Shown one piece after another: positions 1-18,839 of a DNA stretch of 64,000 nt. Below the pieces are notes generated by a model. That model worked only from the letters and a program-made list of their open reading frames with translations. It was not told the DNA's origin and ran no database searches. This DNA comes from an uncultured Acidobacteriota bacterium. GTDB lineage: Bacteria; Acidobacteriota; Blastocatellia; RBC074. Position 1 is the stretch's first letter; each line of letters starts with the position of its first letter. The stretch spans positions 1,152,001 through 1,216,000 of the forward strand of contig CAWCKY010000003.1 in assembly GCA_963796275.1 (NCBI GenBank), in the 5' to 3' direction. The position numbers and the translations under genes are program-made.

Positions 1-1
1 G

Positions 2-298
2 GAAGCCGTGCCTGCCTTGATCCCCATGCTCAAGGATTCGGATGCAAGGGTTCGAAGTTCCGGAGCCTTTATATTAGGGCGAATCGGGCCGGCGGCGAAG
101 GATGCCGTGCCAGTGTTAATCGAGTGGCTCAAGGATCCAGATGCGAATGTTCGCAGTTTCGGAGCAAATACATTAGGTGGGATCGGGCTGGCGGCGAAGG
201 AGGCCATGCCGGCGCTGATTGAGGCACTCAATGACCCGGAGTCACGTGTTCGCAGCTCCGTAAAAGGAGCATTAGCGAAGATCGGATCTGCGCCATAG
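2..298 (+). CDS. HEAT-repeat protein (5' partial, runs off window start)
   Basis: Repeating AVPALIxxLKDxDxxVRxxAAxxLGxIG units; reading frame open from position 2. Confidence 0.85.
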   Translation, partial: EAVPALIPMLKDSDARVRSSGAFILGRIGPAAKDAVPVLIEWLKDPDANVRSFGANTLGGIGLAAKEAMPALIEALNDPESRVRSSVKGALAKIGSAP

Positions 299-365
299 AA
301 ACCCTAACAATTCTCTCTACGCAGATAATCTCAGCGGCGCAATGACCAGCAATGCATACGGAGAG

Positions 366-408
366 GAGCGTGTGCTATCGGGAAGCCGGCTTCCCGAAGC
401 ACACGCTC
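366..408. repeat. 43-bp near-perfect palindrome (REP-like or terminator hairpin)
   Basis: GAGCGTGTGCT-A-TCGGGAAGCC|GGCTTCCCGA-AGCACACGCTC, with one bulged A. Confidence 0.75.
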
Positions 409-436
409 ATTTGATAGTCCTGCATGGATACTCCGA

Positions 437-1804: not shown

Positions 1805-1811
1805 AACCACT

Positions 1812-2378
1812 TCATACGTACAGTAATTCTGTTTTACCGGAAAGCTGAAGGCTGCTCTCCGGAGTATTCAGCCTCGCAGTCAATCGACTCTTGGCCAGAT
1901 TTCCCACCGTGGTTGTCGGATTGAAAAACTTTGATCGCCAGTCGACGATTTCGACCGTCAACTCGGTATACTGACCGTCTTTGAGGACATAGACGCCGAT
2001 TTCACCGGGCAGAGCACTATTTTCACCGGGTGCTCCGGGAGCGGCTGTTTTAGGTCGCGCGGCGGTCAGCATGGCAGTGATGATCTTCTCACTGACCCCA
2101 GCATTTTTTAGGGTTAGCAGCCCGTCTGCGGAAGTGTCAAAATGTGGCTCGTTTGTGCGGATGGCTTCGAGAATGGTTTCTTCACTAAAACCGGCTTTAA
2201 TCATTTTGAGTATATCGTCATTGGTGAATGCTTTGTTCTGCCCGAAGCTGAGAGCTGAGGTCCAGCTGATCAGGACTACCAGGCAACAGCAGATTCCAAT
2301 GCGTGCCAGGCGTGAATGTAGCAAATTGTAGTTCGGGCCACGGACTCGCCCCTCGCCATCCGTTACGTTTTTTTTCAT
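1812..2378 (-). CDS. Hypothetical exported protein, probably 3'-truncated
   Basis: Signal-like hydrophobic segment followed by FTNDDILKMIKAGFSEETI...FDTSADGLLTLKNAGVSEKII helical motif; purine-rich RBS-like tract upstream. Confidence 0.65.
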   Translation of the reverse strand: MKKNVTDGEGRVRGPNYNLLHSRLARIGICCCLVVLISWTSALSFGQNKAFTNDDILKMIKAGFSEETILEAIRTNEPHFDTSADGLLTLKNAGVSEKIITAMLTAARPKTAAPGAPGENSALPGEIGVYVLKDGQYTELTVEIVDWRSKFFNPTTTVGNLAKSRLTARLNTPESSLQLSGKTELLYV

Positions 2379-2613
2379 AATTTCTTCCTTGCTACATTTG
2401 CGATGCCAATTGGACCAGCGTAGGTTGTGGGCTGGTGGGGGCCGCGCCGGGCAGCTTGACCACGGCCCCTTTCGCGATCTCAGGCGCGAGTCGCGTCGCC
2501 AAAATCGGTTCGGGCCGCAAGCTCCAGGAATGGCCCATTTGCGTATAAATCGGCGTCATGGGTCAACAAACAATATTTGGCGTACTGTGGTGGAGGTGAC
2601 TTTCTACCACCTC

Positions 2614-2913
2614 TCACGGTCGGGCTTTGCACGGGCCCGTGTTTGAAATCTGCCGCGTTAGCGTCACTGATCCGTCCTCGCATATGTAGGTGCATAGCCG
2701 TTCGCAACAAACCGCCGGATTCCGTTGATCGATACACGCCTCCTGTAGCGTGCATCCTTGCGCGGCAGGTTCGCATGGCGGGGCGTTATGGGGGTTTCCC
2801 CCAAAGTTAGTTGTCGGCAATGTTACCTCGCGGCCCGTAACTCCGCCATATGGCGTGATTGATGCCGTTATGACGAGAAGTAGCAATACTATTGTTAATC
2901 TTTGCTTTTTCAT
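2614..2913 (-). CDS. Small secreted Cys-rich protein (8 Cys)
   Basis: GGAGG RBS; MKKQR + hydrophobic signal peptide; hairpin just after the stop. Confidence 0.6.
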   Translation of the reverse strand: MKKQRLTIVLLLLVITASITPYGGVTGREVTLPTTNFGGNPHNAPPCEPAAQGCTLQEACIDQRNPAVCCERLCTYICEDGSVTLTRQISNTGPCKARP

Positions 2914-2957
2914 TTCAGTCCTCCGTGACTTTATATTAACGAAGAATAAATGGCCCC

Positions 2958-3589
2958 TTAATTGACCAAGAGTCTCATTGTTTTCCTCACCTCGTAATAC
3001 ACACCAAACTCAAAAAAGCTTCGCTCCGTTGAAAGTTTTTTTCTCAACCCTGTCAATTCCCCCCGCAGCCTCCGCTTCGCGCGCACCAACAGCGACCCGA
3101 CGGCCTTGAACGAAAGGCCCAGTTCCGCCGCCGTTTCGGCGTAACTGCACTCTTCCTCATAGCACAGGGTCAAAGCCAATCGCTGATTGGGCGGCAGTTT
3201 AGCCATGGCTGCGGCCATGACAGTTCGCTGCTCTTCGTGCGCAAGCTCTCCCTCCAGATCGTCAATTGCGCGCGCATCTTTTAACAGTTCGATGAACGTA
3301 CGATTCCTGTTTCTCCTGACAGCATTGCGGCAGAGATTGGTGAGAATCGAGAAGAACCAGGTTTTAAAAGAGGCGGTCTCAGGATTGTACAGGTAAGCGC
3401 GCCGGTGGACTTGCAGGAAAGCATCTTGGACCAGGTCTTCGGCCTCAGCATGTTGCCCGATACATCGCTGCGCCACTCGCAACGCCGGCTTCTGGTAGAG
3501 ATCGAACAGAGTTTCGAAAGCCCTTGCGTCGCCATGGCTCACGCGCAGAATCAGGCCCTCATCAGTGACCGTCGTGGCGTTGGCCCCAT
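2958..3589 (-). CDS. ECF sigma-70 factor (start shifted by a G-run indel; intact ORF 2958-3542)
   Basis: TDEGLILRVSHGDARAFE N-terminus, AEDLVQDAF, FKTWFFSILTNLCRN, region 4 SYAETAAELG. Confidence 0.9.
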
Positions 3590-3742
3590 GGCAACGATGT
3601 TAACTTATGCCATATAGTGCATAATCGCCCTTATCCCCTGCATAAGGGCGAATTGCTGTTAGGACTTTTATTGGCGGGCCTTTTTCGTTAGTCTGCTTTA
3701 CTCTATCAAGTACTATGTGCACATAGGGGCTCGGGCGACTCG

Positions 3743-4213
3743 TTGCATGGGCCGGCCCACCGGGAGGAATTCCAAGAGTTCGTGATCTCCCAATACGACA
3801 AAGCCTATCGACCGATCCTGCGCCGCCTCTATGTTATGTGGGAGAAGTACGCTAAGTATCTATTGGCTGAAGAGTCGATGATCCCGCCCTACATAATGCT
3901 GGCGTCTCCTTCCCTTCCACAGCATTTCGGAGATTATTCTCCAGTGAGCGGGTTCGGCGGACATTCGCAGATTCGTCTCCGTCCGACGCTCCTGACGGGG
4001 CAGCACAAAGCGATGAAGAAAGGCGACCGATACGCGGAAGGGAGGTTGCTTTTCGTGTGTGACGTTCTTCTCCATGAGACCATCCACCAGTACCATCACG
4101 AAATCACGGGAAAGACGGAAGACTCTTACAAAGGGCACGGCCCGCACTTTAGGGACACAGGCAACCTCGTGGGAAAGAATCTTTGGCTTGGTCAGGTGCG
4201 CGTTGCCAAATGA
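3743..4213 (+). CDS. SprT-like zinc metalloprotease domain, probably truncated
   Basis: LLHETIHQ (HExxH) followed by GHGPHF. Confidence 0.6.
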   Translation: MHGPAHREEFQEFVISQYDKAYRPILRRLYVMWEKYAKYLLAEESMIPPYIMLASPSLPQHFGDYSPVSGFGGHSQIRLRPTLLTGQHKAMKKGDRYAEGRLLFVCDVLLHETIHQYHHEITGKTEDSYKGHGPHFRDTGNLVGKNLWLGQVRVAK

Positions 4214-4403
4214 TGGCGGGGGCCTTGCTGGACACGGCGGTGACCACGGACATCGGATACCTCAACCTCCTCGCAGCGCAGGAAGCCGCCAATACGCTGA
4301 TGCGTGGCTTTACGAGTGTGCGCGACATGGGGTACCCGCGTTTGGGCTCAAACGAGCCATTGACGAGGGCATAGTCGTGGGCCCGTACGCGGGATTGCAA
4401 TAA
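4210..4403 (+). pseudogene. Internal fragment of an amidohydrolase-family gene
   Basis: AANTLMRGFTSVRDMG + PAFGLKRAIDEGIVVGP across a frameshift; both ends missing. Confidence 0.7.
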
Positions 4404-4442
4404 ATTCCAATTGATCATATTCATAACAGGAGGAGAAACCAC

Positions 4443-4928
4443 ATGAGCCATCTATCTGAGACCATTGCGAATGGATTCATTGCGACCTATCGGGACTTCG
4501 CCGGGGAAGTGCGCGCTCTTTCGGCAGAACTCTCGGAGCGACAATTCTGGACGAAGCCGTTTCCATACGGAAACAGTTTTGGTCATCTGACTCTTCACCA
4601 GGCCGGTAATTTGAACTATTACCTGGGCGCGCATATCTCCGAGACGGGATATGTCCGTGACCGTGACCGCGAATTTAACGAAAGCGACCCTCCGTCGAAG
4701 GAGGAGGCCTTACGGCTGCTCGACGAGGCGGTGGAAATGGTGGTCAAGGCGCTCGAATTGCAGACGGCCGATTCCTGGACCTCTGAATATAGGGCGACGG
4801 GTGCCGAGATCGTGCATGACAGATTTACGATATTCCTGAGGTGTCTGGCCCATTTTCAACACCATCTCGGGCAGATGATCTATATCGTCAATGGGCATTC
4901 AAGTCTCCATTCTGCGGAGAACAAATAA
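4443..4928 (+). CDS. DinB/DUF1572-family protein
   Basis: AGGAGG RBS; GNSFGHLTLHQAGNL, RDRDREF, HFQHHLGQMIY motifs. Confidence 0.85.
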   Translation: MSHLSETIANGFIATYRDFAGEVRALSAELSERQFWTKPFPYGNSFGHLTLHQAGNLNYYLGAHISETGYVRDRDREFNESDPPSKEEALRLLDEAVEMVVKALELQTADSWTSEYRATGAEIVHDRFTIFLRCLAHFQHHLGQMIYIVNGHSSLHSAENK

Positions 4929-5154
4929 TCCGCAGGGCAACGCGGGTCATTTGTGCCGGGCTTCGGAAGGATTGATGGTGAACTTTCGGCAAATATATGC
5001 TTGCCGAAAGCTCACGGACATCTCTAGGCCACTTCCTCGCCTTCTCATATTAATCTCGTCAGCGCCAACCCTTGATAAATGGAGTAAGATGTCTCGTGTA
5101 TAAGAGACATGTACCAAGCGCTCGAAGTTCAATCAAGTAACCATAGAAGAATAC

Positions 5155-5550
5155 ATGTCAAATATCGAGGGGGACCTGGATATCTATTTTGTGGATGAGG
5201 GGATTGAATTGCTCTATCACAGAGAGGTAAGGACTATCGAGATTACGGCATGGAAAGATTCTCTGTTTGATGCCCAAGACTGGCTGATATTTTTGAGTCC
5301 GGATGCGCTTCGCGACGATCCGAATGCGGCCGACGATCAGGCCCGTCTTTGATTGCGACTCGATGAATCTCTCAACAAGCTACGGAATGCAGCTCGATTG
5401 CGGGACGCCTTTAGGGCGGGCATTAGAGAGGCTCATGCGCATTCTACATATAAATATACGCCGCTAAAACAATACATCGCATATATCAAGAACGGATACA
5501 GCCGAGGGATAAGGGATGCTCTGAACGGCGTGGGCAGAAGGAGAGGTTAA
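5155..5550 (+). pseudogene. Hypothetical protein interrupted by one in-frame TGA (5350-5352)
   Basis: Two 65-aa ORFs abut in the same frame. Confidence 0.4.
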
Positions 5551-6142
5551 TATGGCAAAACCACGAGACACTCACCCAACAGGGTTTGGTCTCGACTCTG
5601 GAAATCAAGAACTATTAACTCGTAATGGCTCACAGAGTCGTTTATACAATATATATGACACCCTCGCGTGCACCCATCGCGCACTTTAGTTTCCCAGCAA
5701 CTTAACCCAATATTACTGTTGAACATTTACTGCTGAGACTGATTCGTGAATGTTCGGGCGTTTGCCCAGATGTTCAAACAACATAATCCACCTTGTGCCT
5801 CGCTTGTTAATCAGTCAAGTTAGTTTGCCGCCTAAATAACTGATTCTAAGTCCAGATGCTGTATAACACGTCGAAAGCACAGTGTTGTCAAATTTTGTTG
5901 TTATGTAGGCCAAGAGTAAAACCGAGAACCCGATATGTTTACTCCATTTTCCACACTAGAAAATTGTGTGCAAATGTGTAATTGGGTTGACGTGTCAGGG
6001 GTGTTTTATAAAGTTCAATGCGCCCCTCAGGCCATGCCTGTAAAGGCAGGGGTAAGGACGGATGGTGACTGTGATCTGACTCGTTGCCCTACCGGTTGTT
6101 CATTTGTCACCATCCGGTTTCTGGGAAATCCCCCTTTTTGAT

Positions 6143-6498
6143 TCACGCAACAAAAGGGTATTCATTTACAAATTCCCCCTCAAGCGATTCCGACAAACAC
6201 AAGGTATTCAAGACAAAAAAATCCTTCAATACCAAAGGTTGGCATTCTCTTACGAGCAGATCGCCATCGTTGATCCCGGCATTGATCATCGAATCGCCAT
6301 GGCCGGAAGTCTGGTAGGCGAGATTGTCAGGAGCTTTTGCCATATCCTCAACGGTTTCTATAATCGCGGGCTTGGCCGGTAATTTGAGCAGAATGTTCTT
6401 AAGTATTGGTTTGCCGAACTTCCAAGCGTCGATCGTGGTCGGCGCGGTGGGGTGATGATGGTCACCTCAAACTTTGTGACATGACCGGCTAGGCTCAT
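6143..6498 (-). pseudogene. Small frameshifted ORF containing an S24 (LexA/UmuD-type) peptidase serine motif
   Basis: GGAGG RBS + ATG at 6498; GDSMINAGINDGDLLV; remainder of the S24 domain absent. Confidence 0.45.
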
Positions 6499-6691
6499 CT
6501 GCCTCCGATATTTCGTATGGGTGAGAACGGTAATGCCATGACTTGCTAGCCCCGGCGCGCACAAGGCTGAGGACGCTGTGTTGCTCTGGCAGAGCGTTCT
6601 GCAATAGAATCCGGCTAGTTCCTAAGCAGTCAGATCGAGCGCAGCAACTGGGCTTCTCAAGCGACTGTCCCTGTCACCGTCTCGTCCCACA

Positions 6692-6763
6692 GCGAAGATT
6701 ACTCAGAGAGCCGCTTAGAAATCCTTTGAAATTCCCTTTTTATTTTTAGAGGTTCTTAGAACG
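6692..6763 (-). promoter_or_regulatory. Phased direct-repeat operator-like array (leftward orientation)
   Basis: On the - strand: TTCTAAGAAC CTCTAA...TTCAAAG GATTTCTAAG, period 10-11 bp; 15/16 match to 8183-8198. Confidence 0.6.
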
Positions 6764-6766
6764 GCG

Positions 6767-8143
6767 ATGAGTAGTTCGACCATACATTTCTACGAGTTCG
6801 ATTCCTTCCGCATTGATCTAGTGAGACGTCGTCTGCTACGCGACAATGAAGTGGTGCCGCTGACGGAGAAGGTTTTTGCTACCTTGTCGGCGCTCGTCGA
6901 ACACAGCGGGCAGGTAGTAAGGAAGGATAGGTTGATGGAGCTGATCTGGCCCGATAGCTTTGTTGAGGAGGGCAACCTCTCCTTCAACGTCTGCGTACTG
7001 CGCAGGGCGCTCGGCGAAAGGCCTCACGAGCACCGTTACATCATGACGGTTCCAGGGGAAGGCTACCGCTTTGTGGCTAGTGTGAAGCCGATTGAGTCAG
7101 GCGATACAATTCCAGATACGGCTGTGCGCCGGGAGGAGCCGGCGCCTCCCGGCGGCGCGCTCCGCTTGAATTCTTCATTCTACATTACGCGGCCGACCGA
7201 CGAGCGATTCCGGGAGGCCATCAAGCGGCAAGACAGCATCATACTGGTTAAGGGGGCGCGGCAGGTGGGCAAATCATCGCTCTTGGCCCGCGGTTTTCAT
7301 CAGGCGCGGGAGGCGGGAGCCAAAGTGGTCTGGACCGATTTCCAAAGTCTCAACGCCGCCTACCTGGAATCGGCCGAGAAGCTCTTTCTGATGCTCGCCG
7401 AATTGGTGGCTGACCAACTCGATCTGGACGTCTCCCCCGATCAAGTTTGGAATCCCCGCATCGGTCCGAGCAGTAACCTCGAGCTCTACTTGCGGCGTGA
7501 GGCGTTGGCCAATGTTTCGGCCCCGATCGTGTGGAGCCTGGATGAGGTTGATCGACTTTTCGCCTGCGATTTCGGAAGCGAGGTCTTCGGGCTGTTTCGC
7601 TCCTGGCATAACCTGCGAGCGATCGAGCCGGCCTGGCAGCGGCTCACGCTCGTGATGGCATATGCGACCGAAGCGCGTCTGTTCATCACCGACCCTAATC
7701 AATCGCCATTCAACGTCGGGACGCACTTCCGGCTCGGAGACTTTACTTTCGAACAAGTGTCCGAACTCAACCGCCGCTATAACTCTCCTTTGCCTGATGG
7801 CGAAGCAGTCGCGCGATATTTCCATTTGGTCGGCGGGCATCCCTATCTGGTACAGCGCGGCCTATACGAGATGGCGGGCGGGCTGGAATGGACGGCTTTG
7901 GAGGCTCAGGCGGACGATGATGAGGGGTTATTCGGCAACCATTTGCGCCACCTGCTCGACTCGCTCAGATGGGACGCGGCGCTGTGTGAAGTAGTGAGCG
8001 GGCTACTTCGGGGAGAGCCGTGTGCGACCGCGGATAGTTTTTACCGCCTGCGCAGCGCAGGTGTGGTGGTGGGAAACTCTGCGCGCGAGGCGAAGCTGCG
8101 CTGCCAGTTGTATGCAAACTATCTCAGCCGGCATTTGCTGTAA
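6767..8143 (+). CDS. OmpR/CadC-type winged-helix + AAA_35 (STAND-like) ATPase transcription regulator
   Basis: N-terminal YEFDSFRID...WPDSFVEEGNL...YIMTVPGEGYRF; Walker A GARQVGKS; Walker B WSLDEVD; SPFNVG; GGHPYL. Confidence 0.9.
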   Translation: MSSSTIHFYEFDSFRIDLVRRRLLRDNEVVPLTEKVFATLSALVEHSGQVVRKDRLMELIWPDSFVEEGNLSFNVCVLRRALGERPHEHRYIMTVPGEGYRFVASVKPIESGDTIPDTAVRREEPAPPGGALRLNSSFYITRPTDERFREAIKRQDSIILVKGARQVGKSSLLARGFHQAREAGAKVVWTDFQSLNAAYLESAEKLFLMLAELVADQLDLDVSPDQVWNPRIGPSSNLELYLRREALANVSAPIVWSLDEVDRLFACDFGSEVFGLFRSWHNLRAIEPAWQRLTLVMAYATEARLFITDPNQSPFNVGTHFRLGDFTFEQVSELNRRYNSPLPDGEAVARYFHLVGGHPYLVQRGLYEMAGGLEWTALEAQADDDEGLFGNHLRHLLDSLRWDAALCEVVSGLLRGEPCATADSFYRLRSAGVVVGNSAREAKLRCQLYANYLSRHLL

Positions 8144-8170
8144 CCGCTCATCGCTATTCAGCTCATCCGC

Positions 8171-8230
8171 GCCACGAAGAGTTTCTAAGAACTTCTAAGC
8201 GCCTTTAAAGACTTCTCAATGGTCTTCAGC
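8171..8230 (+). promoter_or_regulatory. 10-bp phased direct-repeat operator-like array
   Basis: gtttcTAAGa/acttcTAAGc/gccttTAAAg/acttcTCAAt/ggtctTCAGc in exact 10-bp register upstream of 8312. Confidence 0.65.
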
Positions 8231-8311
8231 GTAGGGTCATCTCGGTCGTGATTCGATCATTGGGGTATTCGATCTCACAACCGTTACACCTTCGTAAAGG
8301 AAATAATCGTT

Positions 8312-11300
8312 ATGAGCGACTCTCAAATCAGCTTCTACGTTGTCGGCGGGACGCTGCCGTCGCGCGCCCCTTGTTATATACAGCGGCGCGCGGACCTGGA
8401 TTTGTACGAGGGTCTGAGGGAAGGAAGCTTTTGCTACGTGCTCACCTCGCGACAGATGGGCAAATCCAGCCTGATGATCCGCACTGCGGCGCGTTTGCGC
8501 GAAGAGGGTACGAACGTTGTGTTGCTAGACCTGGCGGCGGTCGGGCAGAACCTCAGCGCCGAGCAATGGTACGGCGGTCTCCTCATGCGGATGGGATCAC
8601 AGATGGGTCTGGTGGATGAGTTGCTGCGATTCTGGCAGGATCACCCATTGCTCGGCCCGATGCAACAATGGATGCAGGCGATACGCGAATTGGTATTGCC
8701 GCGCGTAACCGGGAGGATGGTGATCTTCGTGGACGAGATTGACGCGGTGCGGAGTCTGCCGTTTTCGACTGATGAGTTCTTCGCCGGGATTCGCGAATTC
8801 TACAACCGCCGCACTGAAGACTCGGAACTTCAGCGACTGACCTTCTGCCTGCTCGGAGTGGCATCGCCATCAGATCTGATCCGCGATACACGCACGACGC
8901 CGTTCAACATAGGGCAGCGGATTGAGCTGAATGATTTCACTGAGGCCGAAGCGGGGCCACTGGCCCAAGGGCTGAATCACAGTGAACGGCTCGGCGGGAA
9001 GCTGCTCAAGCGGGTTCTCTACTGGACGGGGGGGCATCCATACTTAACGCAGCGGTTCTGCCAGGCGATAGTTGAAGAGGCAAGGGAGGATACCACTGCC
9101 GAAGTTGATCGCCTGTGTCAGGAACTGTTTCTCTCACACCTTGCGCAGGGGCGAGACGACAATCTGCTGTTTGTCCGTGAACGAATGCTGCGCAGCGAGG
9201 TCGATCTGGCGGGCCTGCTCAGCCGCTACGCTCAGGTGCATGCAGGCAAGCGCATACGCGATGACCTGACCAATCCTTTGATCGGCGTCCTACGGTTGTC
9301 TGGAGTCACGCGGGCGGTTGGCGGCTACCTGGCGGTAAGGAATCGCATCTACGAGCGTGTCTTCGACCGAGAATGGTGTAACACGAATATGCCGGATGCT
9401 GAGCAGCGGCGACAATCGGCGGCCTACAGGCGGGGTATACGACGTGCCGCTGCCGTAGCCGCTTTGATCCTTATCCTTCTTTCCGGCTTATCAATTTACG
9501 CATTCAGGCAGCGCAACCGCGCCAATCAATATGCGAGGGAGCAAGGGCTAACGCTAACCAGATTACAGAGTGCTCTAGGCCAAGCGAAGCGGCAGGAAGA
9601 GGCAGCCATCGAGCACCGCAAGCTGGCGGAAGAGCAACGATGGGAAGCTGAACAGCAACGGCAGGTGGCAGAATGGCAGCGCGCCGAAGGCCAAACGCAA
9701 CGCAACCGAGCCGTGAGGGAAGAGCAATCCAATCGCAAGTTATTATATGCGGCGCATATGAATATGGCGCAACAGTCTTGGGAGATCGCTGATGTAAGAC
9801 ACGTCGAAGAGCTGTTGAATTCGTACCGCCCATATTCTGGGGGTGAGGACCTACGGGGCTTCGAGTGGTACTACTTGTGGCGTCTCTCGCATAGATTTTC
9901 ATCTACATTGCGCCACAATGGCGTTGTCCATTCAGTGGCCTTCTCGACCGACGGAAAGCAGCTGGCGACTGGGAGCAGTGATCGTACAGTCAAGCTATGG
10001 GACGCCGCTACCGGCCAGGAGACGCTCACACTCAAGGGGCATCCGAGCATTGTCACTTCTGTGGTCTTCTCCCCCGACGGAAAGTGGCTGGCGACCGCGA
10101 GTTGGGATAACACAGTCAAACTGTGGGACGCCGCTACCGGACAGGAGACGCTCACACTCAAGGGGCATTCGGACGAGGTCACTTCGGTGGCATTCTCGCC
10201 TGACGGGAAGCGGCTGGCGACCGGGAGTTGGGATAGCACAGTCAAACTGTGGGACGCCGCCACAGGCCAGGAGACGCACACCCTCAAGGGGCATTCGTAT
10301 CGGGTCACATCGGTGGCCTTCTCGCCCGACGGAAAGCGGCTGGCGACCGCGAGTTGGGATAACACAGTCAAACTGTGGGACACTGCTACCGGCCAGGAGA
10401 CGCTCACACTCAAGGGGCATTCGGGCTTGGTCACATCGGTGGCCTTCTCGCCCGATGGGAAGCGACTGGCAACCGGGAGTTGGGATAGCACAGTCAAACT
10501 GTGGGACGCCGCCACAGGCCAGGAGACGCTCACCCTCAAGGGGCATTCGGAAGAGGTCACATCGGTGACCTTCTCGCCCGACGGGAAGTGGCTGGCAACC
10601 GGGAGCGTTGATCGCACAGTCAAGCTGTGGGACGCAACAGGCCAGGAGACGCTCACACTCAAGGGGCATTCGTACCCGGTCGCTTCGGTGGCCTTCTCGC
10701 CCGACGGGAAGTGGCTGGCAACCGGGAGTAGTGATCGCACAGTCAAGCTGTGGGACGCAACAGGCCAGGAGACACTCACACTCAAGGGGCATTCGTACCC
10801 GGACGCTAATATGCTCATCTCTGGGAAGCGGCTGGCGACCAGGAGCGTAGATGGCACTGTCAAGCGGTGGGAGCTCACTGGCCAGGAGCTCACCCTCAAA
10901 GGGCATTCGGATCGATTCATTTCGGTGGCCTTCTCGCCCGACGGGAAGCGGCTGGCGACCGGAAGCTACCGCACAGTCAAGCTGTGGGACGCCGCCACCG
11001 GCCAGGAGACGCTCACCCTCAAAGGGCATTCGGAACAGGTCACATCGGTGGCCTTCTCGCCCGACGGGAAGCGGCTGGCGACCGCGAGTTGGGATCACAC
11101 AGTCAAGCTATGGGACGCCGCCACCGGCCAAGAGACGCTCACACTCAAGGGGCATCCGAGCATTGTCACTTCTGTGGCCTTCTCCCCCGACGGGAAGCGG
11201 CTGGCGACCAGAAGCTACCGCACGGTCAAGCTGTGGGACGTCGCTACCGGCCAGGAAACGCTCACCATCAAGGGGCATTCGGAACAGGTCACATCGATGG

Positions 11301-11866
11301 CCTTCTCGCCCGACGGGAAGCGGCTGGCGGTTGGGAGCAGTGATCCCACAGTCAAGCTGTGGGACACCGCCACCGGCCAGGAGACGCTTACCCTCAAGGG
11401 GCATTCGAGCTATGTCCCGTCGGTGGCCTTCTCGCCCGACGGGAAGCGGCTGGCGACCGCGAGTTGGGATCACACAGTCAAGCTGTGGGACGCCGCCACC
11501 GGCCAGGAGACGCTCACCCTCAAAGGGCATTCGGAACAGGTCACATCGGTGGCCTTCTCGCCCGACGGGAAGCGGCTGGCGACCGCGAGTTGGGATCACA
11601 CAGTCAAGCTGTGGGACGCCACCACCGGCCAGGAGATGCTTACCCTCAAAGGGCATTCGGAACGAGTCATTTCGGTAGCCTTCTCGCCCGATGGGAAGCG
11701 GCTGGCGACCGCGAGTTTTTCTGGCACAGTCAAGCTATGGGACGCCGCAACGGAACAGATCGGGATCACCGACGAAGTTTTGTCCCAACGGAATTATTCT
11801 ATTAGAAATAACTGTCATGAAACTCCTGGAAGCGTGTCAATCCGGTACAGGCTTGGGATACGGTAA
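8312..11866 (+). CDS. AAA_35 (STAND-like) ATPase - transmembrane helix - coiled coil - WD40 repeat protein
   Basis: TSRQMGKS Walker A, IFVDEID Walker B, TPFNIG, GGHPYL; TM AAAVAALILILLSGLSIYAF; 15 GH...WD repeats; true C-terminus may lie near 11795. Confidence 0.92.
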   Translation: MSDSQISFYVVGGTLPSRAPCYIQRRADLDLYEGLREGSFCYVLTSRQMGKSSLMIRTAARLREEGTNVVLLDLAAVGQNLSAEQWYGGLLMRMGSQMGLVDELLRFWQDHPLLGPMQQWMQAIRELVLPRVTGRMVIFVDEIDAVRSLPFSTDEFFAGIREFYNRRTEDSELQRLTFCLLGVASPSDLIRDTRTTPFNIGQRIELNDFTEAEAGPLAQGLNHSERLGGKLLKRVLYWTGGHPYLTQRFCQAIVEEAREDTTAEVDRLCQELFLSHLAQGRDDNLLFVRERMLRSEVDLAGLLSRYAQVHAGKRIRDDLTNPLIGVLRLSGVTRAVGGYLAVRNRIYERVFDREWCNTNMPDAEQRRQSAAYRRGIRRAAAVAALILILLSGLSIYAFRQRNRANQYAREQGLTLTRLQSALGQAKRQEEAAIEHRKLAEEQRWEAEQQRQVAEWQRAEGQTQRNRAVREEQSNRKLLYAAHMNMAQQSWEIADVRHVEELLNSYRPYSGGEDLRGFEWYYLWRLSHRFSSTLRHNGVVHSVAFSTDGKQLATGSSDRTVKLWDAATGQETLTLKGHPSIVTSVVFSPDGKWLATASWDNTVKLWDAATGQETLTLKGHSDEVTSVAFSPDGKRLATGSWDSTVKLWDAATGQETHTLKGHSYRVTSVAFSPDGKRLATASWDNTVKLWDTATGQETLTLKGHSGLVTSVAFSPDGKRLATGSWDSTVKLWDAATGQETLTLKGHSEEVTSVTFSPDGKWLATGSVDRTVKLWDATGQETLTLKGHSYPVASVAFSPDGKWLATGSSDRTVKLWDATGQETLTLKGHSYPDANMLISGKRLATRSVDGTVKRWELTGQELTLKGHSDRFISVAFSPDGKRLATGSYRTVKLWDAATGQETLTLKGHSEQVTSVAFSPDGKRLATASWDHTVKLWDAATGQETLTLKGHPSIVTSVAFSPDGKRLATRSYRTVKLWDVATGQETLTIKGHSEQVTSMAFSPDGKRLAVGSSDPTVKLWDTATGQETLTLKGHSSYVPSVAFSPDGKRLATASWDHTVKLWDAATGQETLTLKGHSEQVTSVAFSPDGKRLATASWDHTVKLWDATTGQEMLTLKGHSERVISVAFSPDGKRLATASFSGTVKLWDAATEQIGITDEVLSQRNYSIRNNCHETPGSVSIRYRLGIR
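9905..11755 (+). repeat. Tandem ~126-bp intragenic WD40 repeats (15 units, 8th degenerate)
   Basis: Near-identical DNA units such as TTCTCGCCCGACGGGAAGCGGCTGGCGACC...GGCCAGGAGACGCTCAC. Confidence 0.95.
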
Positions 11867-12985
11867 TAAGAGCTTTTCCGCAAACCACGTTCGCGAGATT
11901 GTGGAAAAGTTGAATCTATTCATTTGCGCATGTGTGAATCCTGACGGACGCCATTTCAGCCAGACGAGCGATCCGATGTGGCGCAAGAACCGCCGCCCAC
12001 ATTCGGGTGGTGGAAATTGTGTGGGCGTCGATTTCAATCGCAATTTCGATTTCCTTTGGGACCATTTGAGAAAGTTTGCCGGTGACTCTGTAGTGAGCGC
12101 TTCGGACGATCCCTGTAACAAGAATGTATATCGTGGCCCGTCACCCGCATCGGAGCCAGAGACAAGGAAGGTCGTCTGGCTGTTGGATACCTTCCCGCGA
12201 ATCCGGTGGCATGTGGATATGCATAGCGCTGTCCCGGTAATTTTGTACAGTTGGGGTAGTGACAAAACAATCAGACGACAGCCCCTGCTCAGACGTTTTT
12301 AAATAGTGCATTCGATGCGGTCCGGGGACGCGCAAACGATGCCGCGTATGGCGAGTACATTGCACAGAATGATCTCAGCATCGCCGCAACAGTGGCCAAG
12401 AACGTGAACGACGCCTTGAAAGCAGTTCGCGGCATCGACTATGGTGTTGAGCAGGCATTTGGCCTATATCCGACGTCCGGTGCAAGGGACGACTATGCAT
12501 TCGGCCGCTATTTTGCTGATCTCTCGAAAGCCAAGGTCTATGGTTTCACTATAGAGTGCGGCCAAAGCTTTCAACCAGCTTGGTCGGAGGCTGAAGAAGT
12601 TATCCGGGAAGTGTCAAGTGGTCTGATTGGCCTGTGCCTCGAAGCATCTTCCAGCGCGCCTATTCCGATTGTGGCGTCTGAAGGAACCGACATCGTGCTG
12701 GTCCGACAGACCGCAGGTTGGAACACGATCCCGATTGCGTTTTCCAATGAAGACGGCGGTTGGCGCATCACCAACGGCGGAGCGCCCGACTTCATTGCCA
12801 ACTGGGCCAGTCAGCCTGGAGTGAGATTAGTGACCGGTGACTTCAAAGACCATAAATACCGGGATACATTCATTGCGCCGCTACCCGGAGGAAGCGAAGC
12901 AAAACCGATTGCCCGAAGCTGCTGCCGATTGACAACCGGCAAAGTTTGTAGATTAACGCTACGAAAGGTATGTCACGAAAGGTAA
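11800..12985 (+). pseudogene. M14 zinc carboxypeptidase remnant with the start of an FG-GAP-like repeat; 5'-truncated and frameshifted
   Basis: CVNPDG, MWRKNRR, GVDFNRNF, YRGPSPASEPET, VDMHS, GFTIE; N-terminal HxxE ligands missing. Confidence 0.8.
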
Positions 12986-13395
12986 GTTGATGCGGCAAGA
13001 TCGATCTGCCTCGATATGATCGCCCCCGCTCGCCAATACTCTCTCCTCGGTGGCTGAGAATCACATCGGACCTGACTGATCCATCCTGAATTTTTCAAAG
13101 AGGCAAATTTCCATGTCATGGCTTGGCCCATTTCTCTCACTTGTCAGAGGATGGGGATTCCACTCCTGGTGACTTTAATGTGATTGAGGTTTGCCACCTA
13201 TCTGACAGACCATTGTATAAATAATTGTCTATACAATGGTTTATACATTGGATCTCGTATTTTGGCCGTGTAGGCGCCATCAGATGCGAACAGCGCACTC
13301 TTAGGAGATCGCCCTCATAAACATTACCGGCTGCTTGCCGATCTGCAAGCGCATGATGACGCAGGGCGTGTATTGAACGTAAGAAGAGAACAAAC

Positions 13396-14148
13396 ATGCA
13401 AGAGGAAGGTGCCTTGGTCCTTTACGGCCGCGGAGCCGGTCTCGGAAATTTTAAGTTTTTCGCCGATGATTTAGTTACTACTGAACTGACATCTATTAAG
13501 CGACAGAACATATTCATTAAGAAGGTCGGCGCCGCAAAGATTTTTTCGAGCTATTGAACAATCCGCCGTTCACTTTCAGGTTGAAGGAGTTCCACATCTA
13601 CGCTCATTCAATTGGAGGCGGTCTTTTTCTCGGTTACGGAGACCTGGGCATGCAACAAGCGCGATACACGGTTGCGGACCGGGCGAGAGATGGAACGGCA
13701 ACCTATCTCCGAGTGCTGAAGACGGAAATTGGCACTATCTTCACGGACGATCTGATAAGGTCTCCATACAAGGATTATCGCTCGACAATTCGCGCTAGCT
13801 TAAGCAATAACGCCAAAATCAAAATATGGGGATGTAATTCGGGCGTAGCTAATTGACTTATAGCGACGTAGACAGTAATGGGAGTTACGTCTATGATCCG
13901 AATGCCCCTGCGAGTTCCTATTACTGGCGGGCATTAAATGAACTCAACACACCCAAGCCAAGTATTGCTCAGGCGTTCGCTGATTACTTTCAGGTCCAAC
14001 CTACGGCGCGACCAGCGGTTCGAGTATCCAAGTCAAATATAAAGGGCGTTGGGTATCGTCAGCCAAGCTTAATCGTAAGGTAAATGAACAAGACGTGCTT
14101 CGCCTGGCGCCCGACAGAGGAGTTTATAATGAGTACATCCCACGGTAA
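13396..14148 (+). CDS. Caspase-like/DUF4347-like His-Cys protein, split by about three single-base frameshifts
   Basis: Reconstructed MQEEGALVLYG...FHIYAHSIGG...IKIWGCNSG...IAQAFADYF...YNEYIPR*; stop TAA overlaps the next ATG. Confidence 0.55.
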
Positions 14149-14893
14149 TGGCTTCCAAACTACTTTTTCTGATTTGATCGCACTCGTCTTAGTCATACTT
14201 TTGCAGAGCGCGTGTCTTGCTAGCCCACAGTCAAATACACAAAATGCCCAGGGCCAGGCGGTTACTACAAAACCGGTCGATTGCGCTTCGCCGACGCCAC
14301 CGGAAAATGTTGAAGCAATGCCGGAATGGGAAGGCAGCGATCTGCATAAAGCGATTTCTCGACAAGATGTGGCTGGACTTAAAAACCTGTTGAATCAAAA
14401 TGTGAACACAAACACAAAGGATAATTACGGAAATGCTCCGTTGTTTTATGCTTCCGGTCTGACCATCAAAGAACCGAATATGGAGATGGGCGAAGTTGCA
14501 CGTCGGGAAAGAGAACGTGAAAGAGAAAAAGAGGCGCAGTTTAAAACTACTGCGGTGGAAGAACTTTTGATGCACGGCGCAGATCCGAATCTTAGGGGGG
14601 CTCATAAAGCAACACCGTTGATTAAGGCGGCTTCGGGGGGATATGGACCCCGTCACACTGTTCAGATTTTGTCCTTGCTCATCGGATATCAGGCAGATGT
14701 TAATCTTCGTGACGAACGAGGGTATAGCGCGCTCATGACAGCGGCGCAGACCGGCAGCCCGGAAGTCGTAAATTTTCTGCTCGAGCACGATGCTGACGCC
14801 ACGCTGGCCAATTGCGATGGAAAAACGGCGATCCTGATCGCCCGGGCTTTAAATCACACGGAGGTCGTTCGTATATTACAAAGCGCGAAATAG
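14148..14893 (+). CDS. Exported ankyrin-repeat protein (likely start 14148 with a T-run indel; ORF track 14084-14893)
   Basis: Signal-like IALVLVILLQSAC; GADPNL, ATPLIKAA, GYSALMTAA, GKTA ankyrin motifs. Confidence 0.85.
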
Positions 14894-15307
14894 CGATCAT
14901 CAAGGCGAACAACAGATCACCATCGAAACCAGTGAGCCGGTCGGCGCCGGCGCTCTGCAACTCGCATCCGAGCAACAAGTCAAATCATCATTCATGGAAT
15001 CGGCGATATGCGCCTACCTCCCCATACGGCCCATACGGAAACGTACGCGTATTCGCCCAGAGTCCCGAAGCGATATTAAAATCTGGAGTATTAGTAATTC
15101 GGACGCGAGGCCGCAAAATCGAGTCTCGACAACCCAATCCCGCCGTATTAAATTCGAGAATTTGTTGACAATACTGAACTTGTTGCCAACCTTTTCCTTC
15201 ACAATTACTCTATAATTCACAAGCGTAGCAAAGCCCGACACTGCCAAAATCCTTCAGGCGTAAACATTTTTTCTTTAATTGTTAATATTTCGAGATAGAG
15301 AGCGTTT

Positions 15308-15922
15308 ATGGCTATGGAAGACGACGCAAAGGAGGAAATCGTGCCAGTAAACGCGACTCATATGAGAGCCATTCCGGATACAGAAATGAACCCAGTGCCC
15401 GGTTCAAGGTCGGAACTGGAGAGCTTATTTCGCCGGCATCACGAGCGTGTATTTCGAGCGGCATATCGAATCACGGGCAGTATCGTAGATGCTGAAGACG
15501 TATTGCAGACTGTTTTTTTGAGACTTTCGCGGCGCCAGGAAGATTTCAATTTAGAACCCAATCCGTCGAGTTATCTGCATAGAGCGGCGGTAAACGCCTC
15601 GCTCGATCTGATGCGGCAACGCGGCCGGACACAATCCATTCCCATCGAAGACATCGCGCCCGGTCTGGCTGCAAATCACAAGCTCGATCCCGAATCCCTG
15701 CGAGCGGACCGCGAACTCCGCACGGTTATTCGCCGTGCAGTCGCGAAGCTCGGAGAGAGATCGGCTGAAATGTTCGTGCTCAAATATTTCGAAGGGTATG
15801 AGAATAAGGAGATCGCCGAGATGATGGGGACATCTCCGCTCGTCGTCGGCGTCCTCCTTCATCGCTCCCGCGCCCGGGTCAAGAAATACCTTTCAGATTA
15901 TTGGGAGAGAGGCAGAGTTTAA
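15308..15922 (+). CDS. ECF sigma-70 factor
   Basis: [19 protein letters not shown]...[10 protein letters not shown]; [13 protein letters not shown] region 4. Confidence 0.92.
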
Positions 15923-15924
15923 CC

Positions 15925-18621
15925 ATGAAACTAAGGGATATGAATAAAATGATCGACGATGTAACAGCAGGCATCCGCGACGAGCAACTCGATGCTGCGA
16001 CGATCGATGGCGCGGCGCAGCGCGCTTGGACGAGAATTTCGGGCGAGCATACGGCGGCGGAGGTCGGCGCGCCGCCGGTCGAACATATTCGCGGTTGTTC
16101 GGATTTTCAGGCTTTGATTCCAGCCTACCAGCAGGGAATTTTATCGAGCGCGCGTACCATGCTTCTTGAAGATCACGTACGCGAGTGCGTGCCCTGCCGC
16201 AAGGCGTTGAAAGCGGCCCGGGTCGGCAATCAGGCTGCGCTCCGGCTCGAAAGCCAAAAAGCCAGAGTGACGACCGATACCTATCGGATGGCCGTTTTAC
16301 GCTGGGGGGTAGCGGCCGTACTGGTAATCGGCCTGGGGATGATTGCGATGCCATGGGCGCGCCGGTTCATTAGTTCGATAGGCACGCTGCAGGCTGTCGT
16401 AGAGGCATCCAACGGCAGCGTTTATAAAGTCACCGACGAGCGAACGGAAGCGGTAAGAGCCGGCGAGAAGCTCAAGCGTGGCGAACGCCTCCGTACGGCA
16501 AATGATGCGACCGCGGTGGTCAAGTTGTCCGATGGTTCGTCGGTCGAAATGCGTGAACGCACGGAATTATCGATTTCCGACAATTCAGCGCAGGCCACGA
16601 TCAATCTTGAGCGGGGCAACATCATTGTGGAGGCCGCGAAGCAGCGAGGCCGCAAGCTGTTTGTGACCACCGATGACGCGCTGGTGTCAGTTACCGGCAC
16701 GATTTTCTCGGTCAACAACGGCACGAAGGGCGCGCGCGTTTCGGTGATTGAAGGCGCAGTCCACGTCGATCAGGGCGGTAAAAATCATCTATTGAACGCG
16801 GGGCAGCAGGCGACCACTCATCCGAGTATCGAACGAATTCCGGTGCAGGACGAGATCGCGTGGAGCAGGGAGAGGGAACGTTACATCAAGTTGCTCGAAC
16901 CGGTTCGCGGCCAGATCGACCAACAGGTGAGTATGCCGGGTAATCGCTACTCGACCCGGCTGCTCGACCTGATGCCGGAGAACACCCTGCTTTATGTGGC
17001 TATTCCTAACATCAGCCGGACGCTCGCCGAAGCCAATCGCATCTTGCAGGAGAATGTGCAGCAGAATCCCGAACTGCGCGAGTGGTGGGAGAAAGATCGC
17101 TCTGACAACCGGAAGAATCTGCGTCAAGCGATCGATCTGGCGCGCGAGTTGGGCGGCTATCTAGGTGACGAAATCGTCGTGAGCATAGAAGCCGGGGCAA
17201 ACGGGGCGAATGGTGCAAACCGGGCAAACGGCGCAAACGGCGCAAGAGGGCCAAATGGCGTGGAAGAGCCGATGGTCATCGCCGAATTACGCGATGCCGG
17301 CGGGTTCCGCATCTTCCTCGAGAACCAGTTGGCGCAGCTGAGCGCGGATGGGAAGAAGATTCGGATTGTCGACGATTCGTCGCTGGCCGAGTTATCGGAT
17401 ACGAAAGGAGAGCTCCTCGTCTGGATCGCCGACGATCTGGTTGCAGTCTCGTCGAGGCCTGCCGCCTTGAGACAATTGTCGGCACGGTCGCAACAAAGTG
17501 TTAAGTTATTTACAACGACCCCGTTTTACTCACAGATCAATGGCCTTTACCGTGAAGGCGCGGGATTGGTGATCGCCGCTGACCTGGAGCGGATGGTGGC
17601 GCAGTCTTTAAGGAAAGACCTGGAAAAGAGTGCCGCCCAACAGCTCGGTGTGACCGATCTGCGATACTTCATCGTCGAGGTGAAGGAGAAAGACGGCAAA
17701 CCGTTCAACCGCGCATCCGTAAGCTTTCGGGAGAATCAGCACGGAGTAGGTTCCTGGCTGGCGCAGCCCGGGCCGATGGGCGCTCTCGAATTCATCTCGC
17801 CTGACGCGAACGTCGTGGCGGCTTTCGTAGTGAAGGAGCCGGCGGGGCTGGTCGACGACCTGTTCAATACATTGAAGGCGGTCGATGACGCCTCGTGGCA
17901 GAAGCTGCAGAAGTTCCAGGCGGACCAGGGGGTCGACCTGCGCAATGATTTCGCCGTGCCGTTGGGAGGCGAGTATGCCTTCGCAATCGATGGCCCATTG
18001 TTGCCGGTGCCTTCGTGGAAGGCCGTCTTCGAAGTCGACGACCCCGTCCATCTGCAGCAGACCCTCGAGCGGACTATCGAAAGAGCGAACATGGAGCTGA
18101 CGAAGGATGGCAAACGAGGGTTCGCCTGGTCGCAGACTGAGAGCGGCGGAAAGCGTTTCTACACGCTCAAATCGCTCGATTTCCCGGTTGTTGAAGTCAA
18201 TTACGCGTACGTTTACGGGTATCTGGTCGCGGCGCCCAGCCGCGCGCTGGTCGAGAACGCTATTAGTTATCGCGAATCGGGATACACGCTGCTGCAGTCG
18301 TCCAAGTTCAGAGCTACGCTGCCAGAGGACAAGCAGGCCAACTTCTCGGCGATGGTTTATCAGAATATTGGCTCGCTTATTTCTCCGATTGCGAGGAGCG
18401 TCGGCAAGGCCGCGACCAAACGCGCGCCCGGGAAGGCGGGTGAGGCCTTCGAGCAGCTGCTCGGCGATAAGGCCGGCCTGGCCTATGTCTACGCGCTCAA
18501 TGACAGGATGGTCATATCGGTGAATACCGAAGATGGGCCGCTCGGATTGAGCGCGTCTGATCTGCTCGGGCTGCCCGGATCATCAGGTTTGGGGCACATC
18601 ATCAGAGAAGCTACGAAATAG
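15925..18621 (+). CDS. Zinc-finger anti-sigma (HxxxCxxC) - TM - FecR domain - large C-terminal (DUF3352-like) protein
   Basis: [13 protein letters not shown] helix, LSDGSSVEM...[10 protein letters not shown]...[10 protein letters not shown]. Confidence 0.85.
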
Positions 18622-18638
18622 AGCACAAAAAGGCATCT

Positions 18639-18706
18639 AAAAGCACAAAAAGACGAAACATTGGGGAATTACCGATTCCCCGATGTCTCGGTCTTTTTGT
18701 GCTTTT
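18639..18706 (+). terminator. Long hairpin ending in a T-run after the FecR gene
   Basis: AAAAGCACAAAAAGAC...GTCTTTTTGTGCTTTT enclosing GGGGAAT/ATTCCCC. Confidence 0.6.
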
Positions 18707-18839
18707 TTGTTCCCAATAGTGCGTTCATGATCTCCGTAAATTACGCCAATCGGTTGAAACTTAGTTTCACCGGTTGGCGTAACCGTTTATGCTTTTCAAG
18801 AACTTTGTCAAAAAATAAAAAACGTCGGGAGGCGAGGAA

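Follow-up and report, generated by a model that had tools for sequence, protein, structure and literature searches.

Two neighboring genes in a 64,000-nucleotide (nt) stretch of the genome of an uncultured Acidobacteriota bacterium (contig CAWCKY010000003.1, positions 1,152,001 to 1,216,000; hereafter the window) appear to encode a receptor and a regulator that share the same kind of NTPase. Gene A (6767-8143, plus strand) encodes a protein of 458 amino acids (aa), a DNA-binding winged helix joined to a full AAA_35 module. Gene B (8312-11866, plus strand) encodes a protein of 1184 aa with an AAA_35-type module, one membrane helix and a long array of WD40 repeats. We propose, with the balance of the evidence leaning modestly in its favor, that the pair is a split, membrane-spanning STAND-like signaling relay ending in autoregulated transcription. 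In such a relay, B would act as an effector-less membrane receptor and A as a sensor-less executor. All evidence on the pair is computational. An earlier interpretation of the window from its letters (the sequence-only reading) had described both open reading frames (ORFs), the shared AAA_35-type NTPase and its motifs, and profile search and the sequence confirm all of these.

The head of A is a Trans_reg_C domain, the OmpR/ToxR-type winged-helix DNA-binding domain, at aa 28-102 (6848-7072, plus strand; E 2e-17). The fusion of an OmpR/CadC-like winged helix to AAA_35 in one gene, as put forward in the sequence-only reading, is therefore real. The AAA_35 module follows at aa 128-454 (7148-8128, plus strand), scoring 254 bits over profile positions 2-330 of Pfam PF14516, whose curated cut-off is 27 bits, and consists of nucleotide-binding, helical and winged-helix subdomains. 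Its motifs, Walker A GARQVGKS, Walker B LDEVD, PFNVG and GGHPYL, are invariant or nearly so in an alignment of 38 A-type relatives. The GKS of Walker A and the DE(V)D of Walker B are strictly invariant there, giving A the P-loop of a STAND protein. A ends at the winged-helix subdomain, has no sensor repeats and shows no membrane segment. The Pfam search at E 0.01, with five families listed, gave no match to a receiver (Response_reg), BTAD or NB-ARC in gene A. The winged helix is N-terminal, where OmpR/PhoB response regulators carry a receiver, and neither the BTAD that follows the winged helix in SARP/AfsR proteins nor their NB-ARC is present. NCBIfam profiles match the DNA-binding part alone, far below their cut-offs. 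The AlphaFold2 model of A has a confidence (pLDDT) of 89, and its head superposes on the ToxR DNA-binding domain with Z 17.4 and a root-mean-square deviation of 1.4 over 103-104 residues. Close homologues of A are named 'AAA-like domain-containing protein', 'helix-turn-helix transcriptional regulator' or 'DNA-binding winged helix-turn-helix protein' in their sources. For the module itself, annotation stops at the first of these names, with no functional annotation beyond it.

The cytoplasmic AAA_35-type module of B (8348-9391, plus strand; aa 13 to ~360) has nucleotide-binding, helical and winged-helix subdomains as well. The Pfam profile matches aa 13-256 with 102.8 bits (profile positions 4-246 of 331), above the 27-bit cut-off. 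The ATPase domains of A and B are paralogous, with 31% identity over 240 aa (E 6e-26). In B, the motifs read SRQMGKSS (Walker A), DEID (Walker B), PFNIG and GGHPYL; all are invariant or nearly so in 11 aligned B-type relatives, the two Walker motifs without exception. According to the AlphaFold2 model (pLDDT 84.3), the module has the same three-part order as that of A, and its winged-helix subdomain directly precedes one continuous helix, aa 363-419, which spans the single transmembrane helix (9449-9505, plus strand; aa 380-398). A conserved arginine-rich motif, MPDAExRRQ..RRG, precedes the membrane helix. Beyond it come a charged helical stalk and a conserved pre-propeller segment (9506-9907, plus strand; aa 399-532). 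The stalk, where the sequence-only reading had a coiled coil, was modeled over aa 399-419 only, and these residues belong to the continuous helix. The pre-propeller segment is 33-62% identical in relatives.

The remainder of B is made almost entirely of 15 WD40 repeats, predicted to be extracytoplasmic (9908-11773, plus strand; aa 533-1154). PF00400 matches this region with 621.7 bits in 14 stretches, and 15 repeats are counted by register, as befits a WD40 beta-propeller protein. Tandem Repeats Finder reports 9931-11748 with a period of 126, 14.6 copies and 83% matches. The sequence-only reading had one transmembrane helix and 15 highly similar repeats; helix and repeat number stand, and the similarity turned out to be uneven. 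Ten of the 15 repeats are regular at 42 aa, with a mean pairwise DNA identity of 0.83, four are one codon short, and repeat 8 (10784-10897, plus strand; aa 825-862) is degenerate, reduced to 38 aa by several in-frame deletions. All length changes keep the frame. Among the ten regular repeats, non-synonymous differences are concentrated at positions 5, 6, 8, 22, 24 and 26, which we take to be the top face of the WD40 blades. The GC content is 0.59 across gene B and 0.50-0.57 elsewhere in the window. Horizontal transfer was considered for this difference and rejected, because the GC-rich repeats explain the value.

Exactly one membrane-like helix is present in 65 of the 68 complete B ORFs, at a conserved position; of 67 A-type proteins, 66 lack any such segment. 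Each of the 11 aligned B proteins has at least as many lysines and arginines before the helix as behind it. WD40 repeats form the ectodomain in 55 of the 68 complete ORFs. The ten non-WD40 ectodomains tested contain PEGA with CarboxypepD_reg (four), CarboxypepD_reg (two), TPR (two) or no match (two). PEGA and CarboxypepD_reg are typical extracytoplasmic domains. Because these domains occupy the same position in B paralogues, because the place of the helix and the arginine-rich motif before it are conserved, and because the ATPase must be cytoplasmic, the WD40 propellers of B are predicted to lie outside the cytoplasm. This agrees with the sequence-only reading, which had put the repeats on the far side of the membrane.

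Judged by gene order, A and B form a conserved unit. The window's own genome (9.46 Mb) holds exactly four AAA_35 matches, and these are two A-then-B pairs. When 201 genomes of the phylum were searched with PF14516, 13 strong A-type matches were obtained, the window's own genome included; B lies directly downstream in 11 and 1.8 kb upstream on the same strand in one (12 of 13 with B within 2 kb), and one, on a 4-kb contig, is without B and has a GAF histidine kinase after it. When species-representative genomes were scanned with an alignment of the B N-terminus, at least 594 relatives were obtained, and the best 80 loci were examined. These come mostly from Acidobacteriota (Blastocatellia, Pyrinomonadaceae, Terriglobia, Bryobacteraceae), with a few records labelled Chthonomonadaceae, Planctomycetota, Verrucomicrobia or, doubtfully, Heliobacteriaceae. 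In 66 of the 71 evaluable loci among these 80, A stands directly upstream on the same strand (locus L098, whose B ORF start is over-extended, was assigned by hand). A is divergent in one further locus, no A is found within at least 2.5 kb upstream in four, and nine are cut by a contig end. The co-occurrence expected by the sequence-only reading thus extends well beyond the window. Across the 66 loci, the gap between A and B has a median of 10 nt, and eleven pairs overlap by 4 nt. Five of the best 80 loci are A-B-B tandems, L063, L068, L085 and L099 among them. The B tree clusters by the type of head on the partner A, needing 16 changes against 37.1 with shuffled labels. Patristic distances of A and B correlate with r = 0.73 over 66 pairs, a value that includes shared species history and linkage. 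Both results are consistent with evolution of the pair as a unit. No third gene is conserved across the window and 13 loci. In a large protein collection, at least 3940 winged-helix-AAA_35-like proteins were found among 8000 scored candidates.

The second pair of the same genome (G000:C3:328794-333311; L005 6795-11312) lies ~0.83 Mb away and has the same layout, winged-helix-AAA_35 followed by AAA_35-TM (transmembrane)-WD40. Its WD40 repeats are divergent, not near-identical, and the phased (C/G)ATAAA boxes 5' of its A gene are unlike the boxes of the window. Other arrangements were seen in the survey as well: two B genes with no A seen at L048, extra weaker B-like ORFs at L101, and at L104 a second executor (cyclase+TIR-AAA_35) that is convergent and downstream of the receptor.

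The head of A is exchangeable on a closely related ATPase scaffold, and so is the ectodomain of B. Among the 63 A partners taken from the best 80 B loci, the head is Pkinase in 22, Pkinase+TIR in 17, Trans_reg_C in 15, BTAD in four, tandem TIR in two, TIR (5' cut) in two and cyclase+TIR in one. In the phylum set, we found Pkinase (five), TIR (four), winged-helix (two) and trypsin-like protease (one) heads. The ATPase module of the window's A is 67% identical to that of a kinase+TIR partner. On the A tree (68 rows), the head label needs 13 changes against 37.1 when shuffled. The pair of the window was called kinase-free in the sequence-only reading, which is correct for this locus and does not carry over to the family, as 39 of the 63 related partners have a Ser/Thr kinase.

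These kinases look active and are linked to a particular kind of sigma factor. Of 38 partner kinases, 36 retain HRD, DFG and the VAIK lysine, and a PF07638 ECF sigma gene lies directly upstream of 16 of the 18 kinase-only partners tested. All 16 linked sigmas lack the DAED motif of region 2.2 and have T/S instead; the two ordinary ECF sigmas of the window keep DAED. According to excerpts of a review (PMC8999054), loss of DAED with T/S in its place marks ECF43-type sigmas, which are activated by Ser/Thr-kinase phosphorylation. The resulting three-gene layout, with a DAED-less ECF sigma, a soluble Ser/Thr kinase-AAA_35 protein and an AAA_35-TM-WD40 protein, is seen at L037, L044, L049, L053, L057, L064, L066, L078, L082, L083, L085, L087, L089, L099, L103 and L112. 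This layout suggests that the membrane sensor of the phospho-activated sigma systems in these sister loci would be a separate protein, B. Since the kinase-only partners seem wired to a phospho-type ECF sigma, the commonest sister modules probably end in transcription, which the winged-helix type would reach directly. Separately, TonB-dependent-receptor-like outer-membrane barrels precede the kinase+TIR modules at L107 (891-4439) and L111 (869-4423); the one ectodomain tested of these two, at L111, is of the PEGA type. Other genes directly upstream of a module encode a WD40 protein that also has a caspase-like match (L045, 1869-4325) and a protein with a CHAT domain (L106, 4328-5128).

According to its model, the module of A lies at the border between ORC/Cdc6 and STAND proteins. 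The best fold matches are the archaeal ATPases 2qen (PAB2304; Z 21.9) and 2fna (SSO1545; Z 20.7), followed by CED-4 (Z 17.7), ORC2 (17.1), plant resistosomes (~17) and Apaf-1 (15.3), with alignments covering aa 133-458. Avs3 and Avs4 are among the Foldseek matches of the A model, and NRC4 and other resistosome structures are among its fold matches. The A model has the three-part module of Apaf-1, CED-4 and NLR proteins, and B has the same order of elements. GGHPYL resembles what we take to be the GxP motif of STAND proteins, and together with the fold matches this makes 'STAND-like' a fair description. The sensor repeats are not fused C-terminally to the executor, as they are in STAND proteins; A has none, and those of B lie behind a membrane helix. 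Therefore, we describe the pair as STAND-like and split, rather than as a typical member.

Modeling of the two modules as a heterodimer supports binding between them. A aa 122-458 and B aa 1-372, both entered as alignments, gave values of the interface score ipSAE of 0.65, 0.64 and 0.63, compared with 0.00 for the best of three controls. The mark applied to this score is reached by 58 of 80 solved complexes and by two of 110 mismatched pairs. The runs share at least 73% of their contacts, with a partner pLDDT of at least 82. In the modeled interface, A aa 229-244 and 269-287, the latter a helix with invariant R278 and R284, face the Walker A helix (aa 52-63), aa 69-101 and Walker B (aa 141-142) of B. 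Such a contact would be head-to-tail, as in an NTPase ring. A complex model of the two ATPase domains was among the checks named in the sequence-only reading, and the result (0.64 against 0.00) speaks for it.

Gene A is flanked by two arrays of phased boxes. The first (6709-6761), 5' of the gene, is a candidate operator for the winged helix of A and holds ~5 boxes about 10-11 nt apart, reading CTTAGAA, CTTTGAA, TTTAGAG and CTTAGAA, with TTCTAAG on the minus strand at 6714 and 6755. The second (8179-8229) lies in the 168-nt spacer between A and B, with TTCTAAG at 8183 and 8193 and TTCTCAA at 8213, at spacings of 10 and 20 nt. TTCTAAG alone occurs five times in the window, against 4.5 expected by chance; four of these sites flank gene A. 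The arrays are inverted repeats of each other (6709-6734 with 8179-8204; 6746-6761 with 8183-8198). Genome-wide, the dimer TTCTAAG-N3-TTCTAAG has its sole exact match in the 8179-8229 array and its sole one-mismatch match in the 6709-6761 array; one two-mismatch match is a neighboring site. The phased boxes seen in the sequence-only reading are thus confirmed as inverted arrays with the best matches of the genome, and boxes of similar form are fewer upstream of other A types. At up to two mismatches, the dimer has 20 matches in the genome against 82 for the reversed control, with no sign of further targets in a wider regulon. The simplest reading of these arrays is that A binds them cooperatively and autoregulates the pair. 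It is suggestive only that similar phased A/T-rich boxes seem to stand before most of the other winged-helix-type A genes. Counted over the 90 nt 5' of each gene, their mean number is 3.4 for 16 winged-helix-type A genes and 0.43 for 42 of other types (omitting L106, L028 and genes cut at the 5' end), counts obtained with a regular expression chosen by eye on the same winged-helix set and from upstream regions that are richer in A+T in that set, with interrelated loci.

Taken together, these features lead us to the following mechanism. STAND NTPases oligomerize when ligand binds their repeats, as in NLRs and fungal HET-E. As the receptor, B would expose a double WD40 propeller to the periplasm, where a ligand, probably a protein, may bind the variable top face of the blades. 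The continuous helix formed by the stalk, the membrane segment and the juxtamembrane part would couple the propeller to the cytoplasmic AAA_35 module. B has no output domain, and A has a ToxR/OmpR-type winged helix and no sensor. The activated ATPase module of B would engage the paralogous module of A through the head-to-tail NTPase contact, and this contact may nucleate A oligomers. The clustered winged helices would then bind the arrays of ~5 boxes before A and B, spaced by 10-11 nt, resulting in autoregulation. Other targets of A may exist. The scheme is built on the domain make-up, the pairing, the single membrane helix, the intact Walker motifs, the exchangeable heads and ectodomains and the locus-specific boxes, all of which were observed computationally. 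From these we infer ligand binding outside the cytoplasm, nucleotide-dependent co-assembly, box binding and the sign of regulation.

The sequence-only reading had gone as far as ligand-driven hetero-oligomerization that switches the winged-helix partner on the boxes. Pairing, topology, complex model and boxes agree with this proposal, and none of the refuting conditions it named was borne out among those that can be checked in silico. The same features fit both activation of A by the signal and its release. In the latter case, B would hold A inactive at the membrane through the ATPase modules, and an outside signal would free A to bind the boxes. Such sequestration, which we consider unlikely, fits the pairing, the topology and the predicted contact equally well. 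Anti-sigma factors hold ECF sigma factors inactive, and membrane sequestration is common in these genomes, an ECF sigma/FecR-type pair lying 3.4 kb downstream. However, the exchangeable heads include kinases, TIR domains and a trypsin-like protease, and proteins of these kinds are typically switched on by induced proximity, not by release. In addition, the A-B-B tandems, with two receptors for one executor, fit recruitment better than stoichiometric holding. A quite different possibility, that the two genes are not coupled at all, seems very improbable to us. Here, adjacency would stem from tandem duplication of an ATPase gene, leaving A an ordinary one-component regulator and B a membrane scaffold. 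The paralogy of the two ATPase domains would agree with that, as would the four B loci without A, the one divergent A and the one A followed by a GAF histidine kinase. Against it stand the A-then-B order in 66 of 71 loci with its frequent 4-nt overlaps, the persistence of this order whichever of at least six kinds of head and three kinds of ectodomain are present, the lack of a sensor in A and of an output in B, the B tree that follows the partner's head type, and a complex model that passes its controls.

We also find it rather doubtful that the pair is an NLR-like sensor and executor of immunity or conflict, in which hypervariable periplasmic WD40 blades would detect non-self such as phage or competitor proteins. 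The winged-helix output would then be a transcriptional defense program, and the sister variants would act by NAD+ depletion or proteolysis. Swapping of TIR, trypsin-like, kinase and winged-helix heads is the pattern of NTP-dependent conflict systems, as described in excerpts of Kaur et al. 2020 (PMC7159879). Moreover, the near-alike repeats vary mainly at six positions, the fold has relatives in Avs3, Avs4 and plant resistosomes, and the modules are patchy and present in several copies within genomes. However, in PADLOC-DB 2.0, the matches of A are limited to PDC-S01 models (E 1.6e-4 to 1.2e-3, over ~50-55 aa around the P-loop), and those of B to a HEAT-ARM model that contains WD40. In a sample of 117 out of 190 flanking ORFs, 108 had no match at E 1e-10, and the other nine matched mostly through generic domains (kinase, WD40, TPR, methyltransferase or AAA). 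The surveillance or defense role entertained in the sequence-only reading finds little support in these gene neighborhoods, where no association with defense islands was seen. The commonest partners are active-looking kinases that seem wired to phospho-type ECF sigmas, a regulatory layout, and at this locus the output is DNA binding with candidate operators directed at the pair itself. The phospho-ECF wiring, the lack of a credible PADLOC match and the scarcity of defense neighbors favor the signaling relay.

Apart from these alternatives, several observations weigh against the relay itself, in addition to the limits given above for the box counts and for the distance correlation. The score of the complex may be no more than a sign of how paralogous AAA+/STAND domains generally pack head to tail. 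At zero or one mismatch, the 9.46-Mb genome has no site for the box dimer beyond the flanks of gene A, so that autoregulation alone is indicated. No RNA dataset was found to contain the stretch; the matches came from soil-metagenome DNA contigs alone, and the share of sampled words in them did not exceed 0.45. Five of the 15 WD40 repeats are irregular. The C-terminal tail of B (11774-11866, plus strand), ~30 aa unlike the repeats, shares its DNA with the beginning of a carboxypeptidase M14 fragment, while most complete WD40-type relatives end within ~10 aa of the last detected repeat; we count this as a weak point. Finally, the receptor gene of the second pair is interrupted within a repeat by an in-frame stop (KGHG*WVSA), with a further 243 aa of open frame behind it. 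Because of the irregular repeats, the unrelated tail and this stop, the modules of this genome may be decaying or not fully functional.

The membrane-spanning relay shares parts with several known systems. AfsR and other large SARPs of actinomycetes combine an OmpR-type winged helix, BTAD, an NB-ARC STAND NTPase and TPR. Like A, they have the winged helix N-terminally fused to a STAND-like NTPase, and they have phased direct-repeat targets; among related loci, BTAD precedes AAA_35 in four of 63 partners. Unlike the pair, AfsR is one cytoplasmic polypeptide with its own sensor repeats, while here the sensor is on a separate membrane protein with its own ATPase, and the NTPase is AAA_35 and not NB-ARC. 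MalT of E. coli (8bob, among the Foldseek matches) parallels the role proposed for A, being a STAND switch that depends on NTP and binds arrays of repeated boxes as an oligomer. However, it consists of one cytoplasmic protein, has its LuxR-type helix-turn-helix at the C-terminus and binds its inducer inside the cell. ToxR, the best match of the head, and CadC also transmit signals from outside to a winged helix of the OmpR type, with no phosphotransfer step, but their winged helix is itself tethered by a membrane helix and no NTPase is involved, whereas here the head is soluble and would be coupled through two ATPase modules.

In NAIP-NLRC4 and in the sensor/helper NLRs of plants (the NRC network), sensing and output NOD proteins are thought to co-assemble through NOD-NOD contacts. 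A and B show the same division of labor and the same kind of fold (Z ~17). They differ in being bacterial, with a receptor that spans the membrane and has its repeats outside, an executor without repeats and a DNA-binding output, and there is no family membership at the sequence level. The fungal NACHT-WD40 proteins HET-E and NWD2 resemble B in their near-identical 42-aa WD40 repeats that vary at a few positions, but are cytosolic single proteins. PAB2304 and SSO1545 are the closest solved folds of A (310 and 303 residues aligned); they are ~14% identical to it and are stand-alone proteins, and their entry titles state no function. The sister modules combine a soluble kinase with a separate membrane sensor, B, unlike the ECF43 systems, whose kinases PknT and PknS are reportedly transmembrane sensors themselves. 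The likeness lies in a DAED-less sigma served by a kinase, as in PknT-EcfP and PknS-EcfK (excerpts of PMC8999054). The window pair has neither a kinase nor a linked sigma of the ECF43 type.

In the literature, we found no paper on the pair or on PF14516, although supplementary tables might list the family under another name. The sequence-only reading, too, knew of no functional characterization of such a pair. The excerpts of Kaur 2020 (PMC7159879), Kaur 2021 (PMC8195603), a 2026 STAND survey in Nature (PMC13581612), Doré 2024 (PMC10907252) and a paper on Planctomycetota kinases (PMC11032199) contain no description of it. STAND switches, SARP/AfsR proteins and sensor/helper NLR pairs are known; the split, membrane-spanning version with the repeats outside is new. 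New are also the exchangeable heads and ectodomains, the ECF link, the locus-specific boxes, the adjacency counts and the controlled complex model.

Around the pair, the ~1.8 kb 5' of gene A (4930-6766) contain no ORF longer than 92 aa and several short inverted repeats, and GC is lowered to 0.45 at 5001-6000. No Rfam match at E 0.1 was obtained in 4000-14000 and no tRNA in 1-20000. Counts in a promoter and terminator scan were not above those of shuffles; one sigma-70-like site (6337-6364) and two weak terminator-like sites within gene A were noted. Downstream, an ORF at 11691-12302 (plus strand) begins inside the 3' end of gene B in a different frame and encodes just the central part of a zinc carboxypeptidase M14 domain (profile positions 80-196 of 286). 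As this ORF resembles a gene fragment, the 3' end of B may be rearranged. The ORF after it (12392-12985, 197 aa) has no Pfam match. Further away are the ordinary DAED-bearing ECF sigma genes at 2958-3542 (minus strand) and 15308-15922 (plus strand), the latter followed by a 906-aa FecR/zf-HC2 anti-sigma-like gene (15901-18621, plus strand). Genes for an ankyrin-repeat protein, a SprT-like protein and a DinB-family protein are also in the window, and 14084-14893 (plus strand) is another of these neighboring genes. None of these ECF sigma, anti-sigma-like, ankyrin, SprT-like and DinB neighbors is conserved beside the pair in other genomes. At L106, a winged-helix-type locus, the A-B spacer (6691-6982) is 292 nt long with long internal direct and inverted repeats in GC-rich units of ~60 nt, and so differs from the short spacers at other loci.

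More broadly, and tentatively, the pair can be viewed as a split transmembrane NLR, an idea that we find plausible without yet expecting it to hold. The module would then represent a widespread, modular, nucleotide-driven and so far undescribed form of trans-membrane signaling, in which a receptor NOD activates an executor NOD through NOD-NOD co-assembly. An effector-less receptor NOD would carry exchangeable outside domains (WD40, TPR, PEGA), with variable WD40 blades reading extracytoplasmic, probably protein, ligands. The executors would provide winged-helix, SARP, TIR, protease and cyclase outputs, or a Ser/Thr kinase feeding a phospho-ECF sigma. If true, such a system would be a bacterial counterpart of the sensor/helper NLR pairs and would add one more class of signal transduction to the two-component, ECF/anti-sigma and Hanks-kinase systems.

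Acidobacteria abound in soil, are difficult to cultivate and are still little understood, and their environmental sensing is largely uncharted. The module is common, with at least 594 receptor-type relatives in species-representative genomes. Receptor, regulator and two candidate operator arrays make a self-contained circuit within 5.2 kb, which can be tested in a heterologous host. If the relay works as proposed, STAND/NLR switches, which are known as sensors of the cytosol, can be divided between two proteins and made to act across a membrane, and NLR-like co-assembly would be linked to OmpR-type DNA binding and to phospho-activated ECF sigmas. Plug-and-play ectodomains and outputs would then explain a large block of 'hypothetical' signaling genes.

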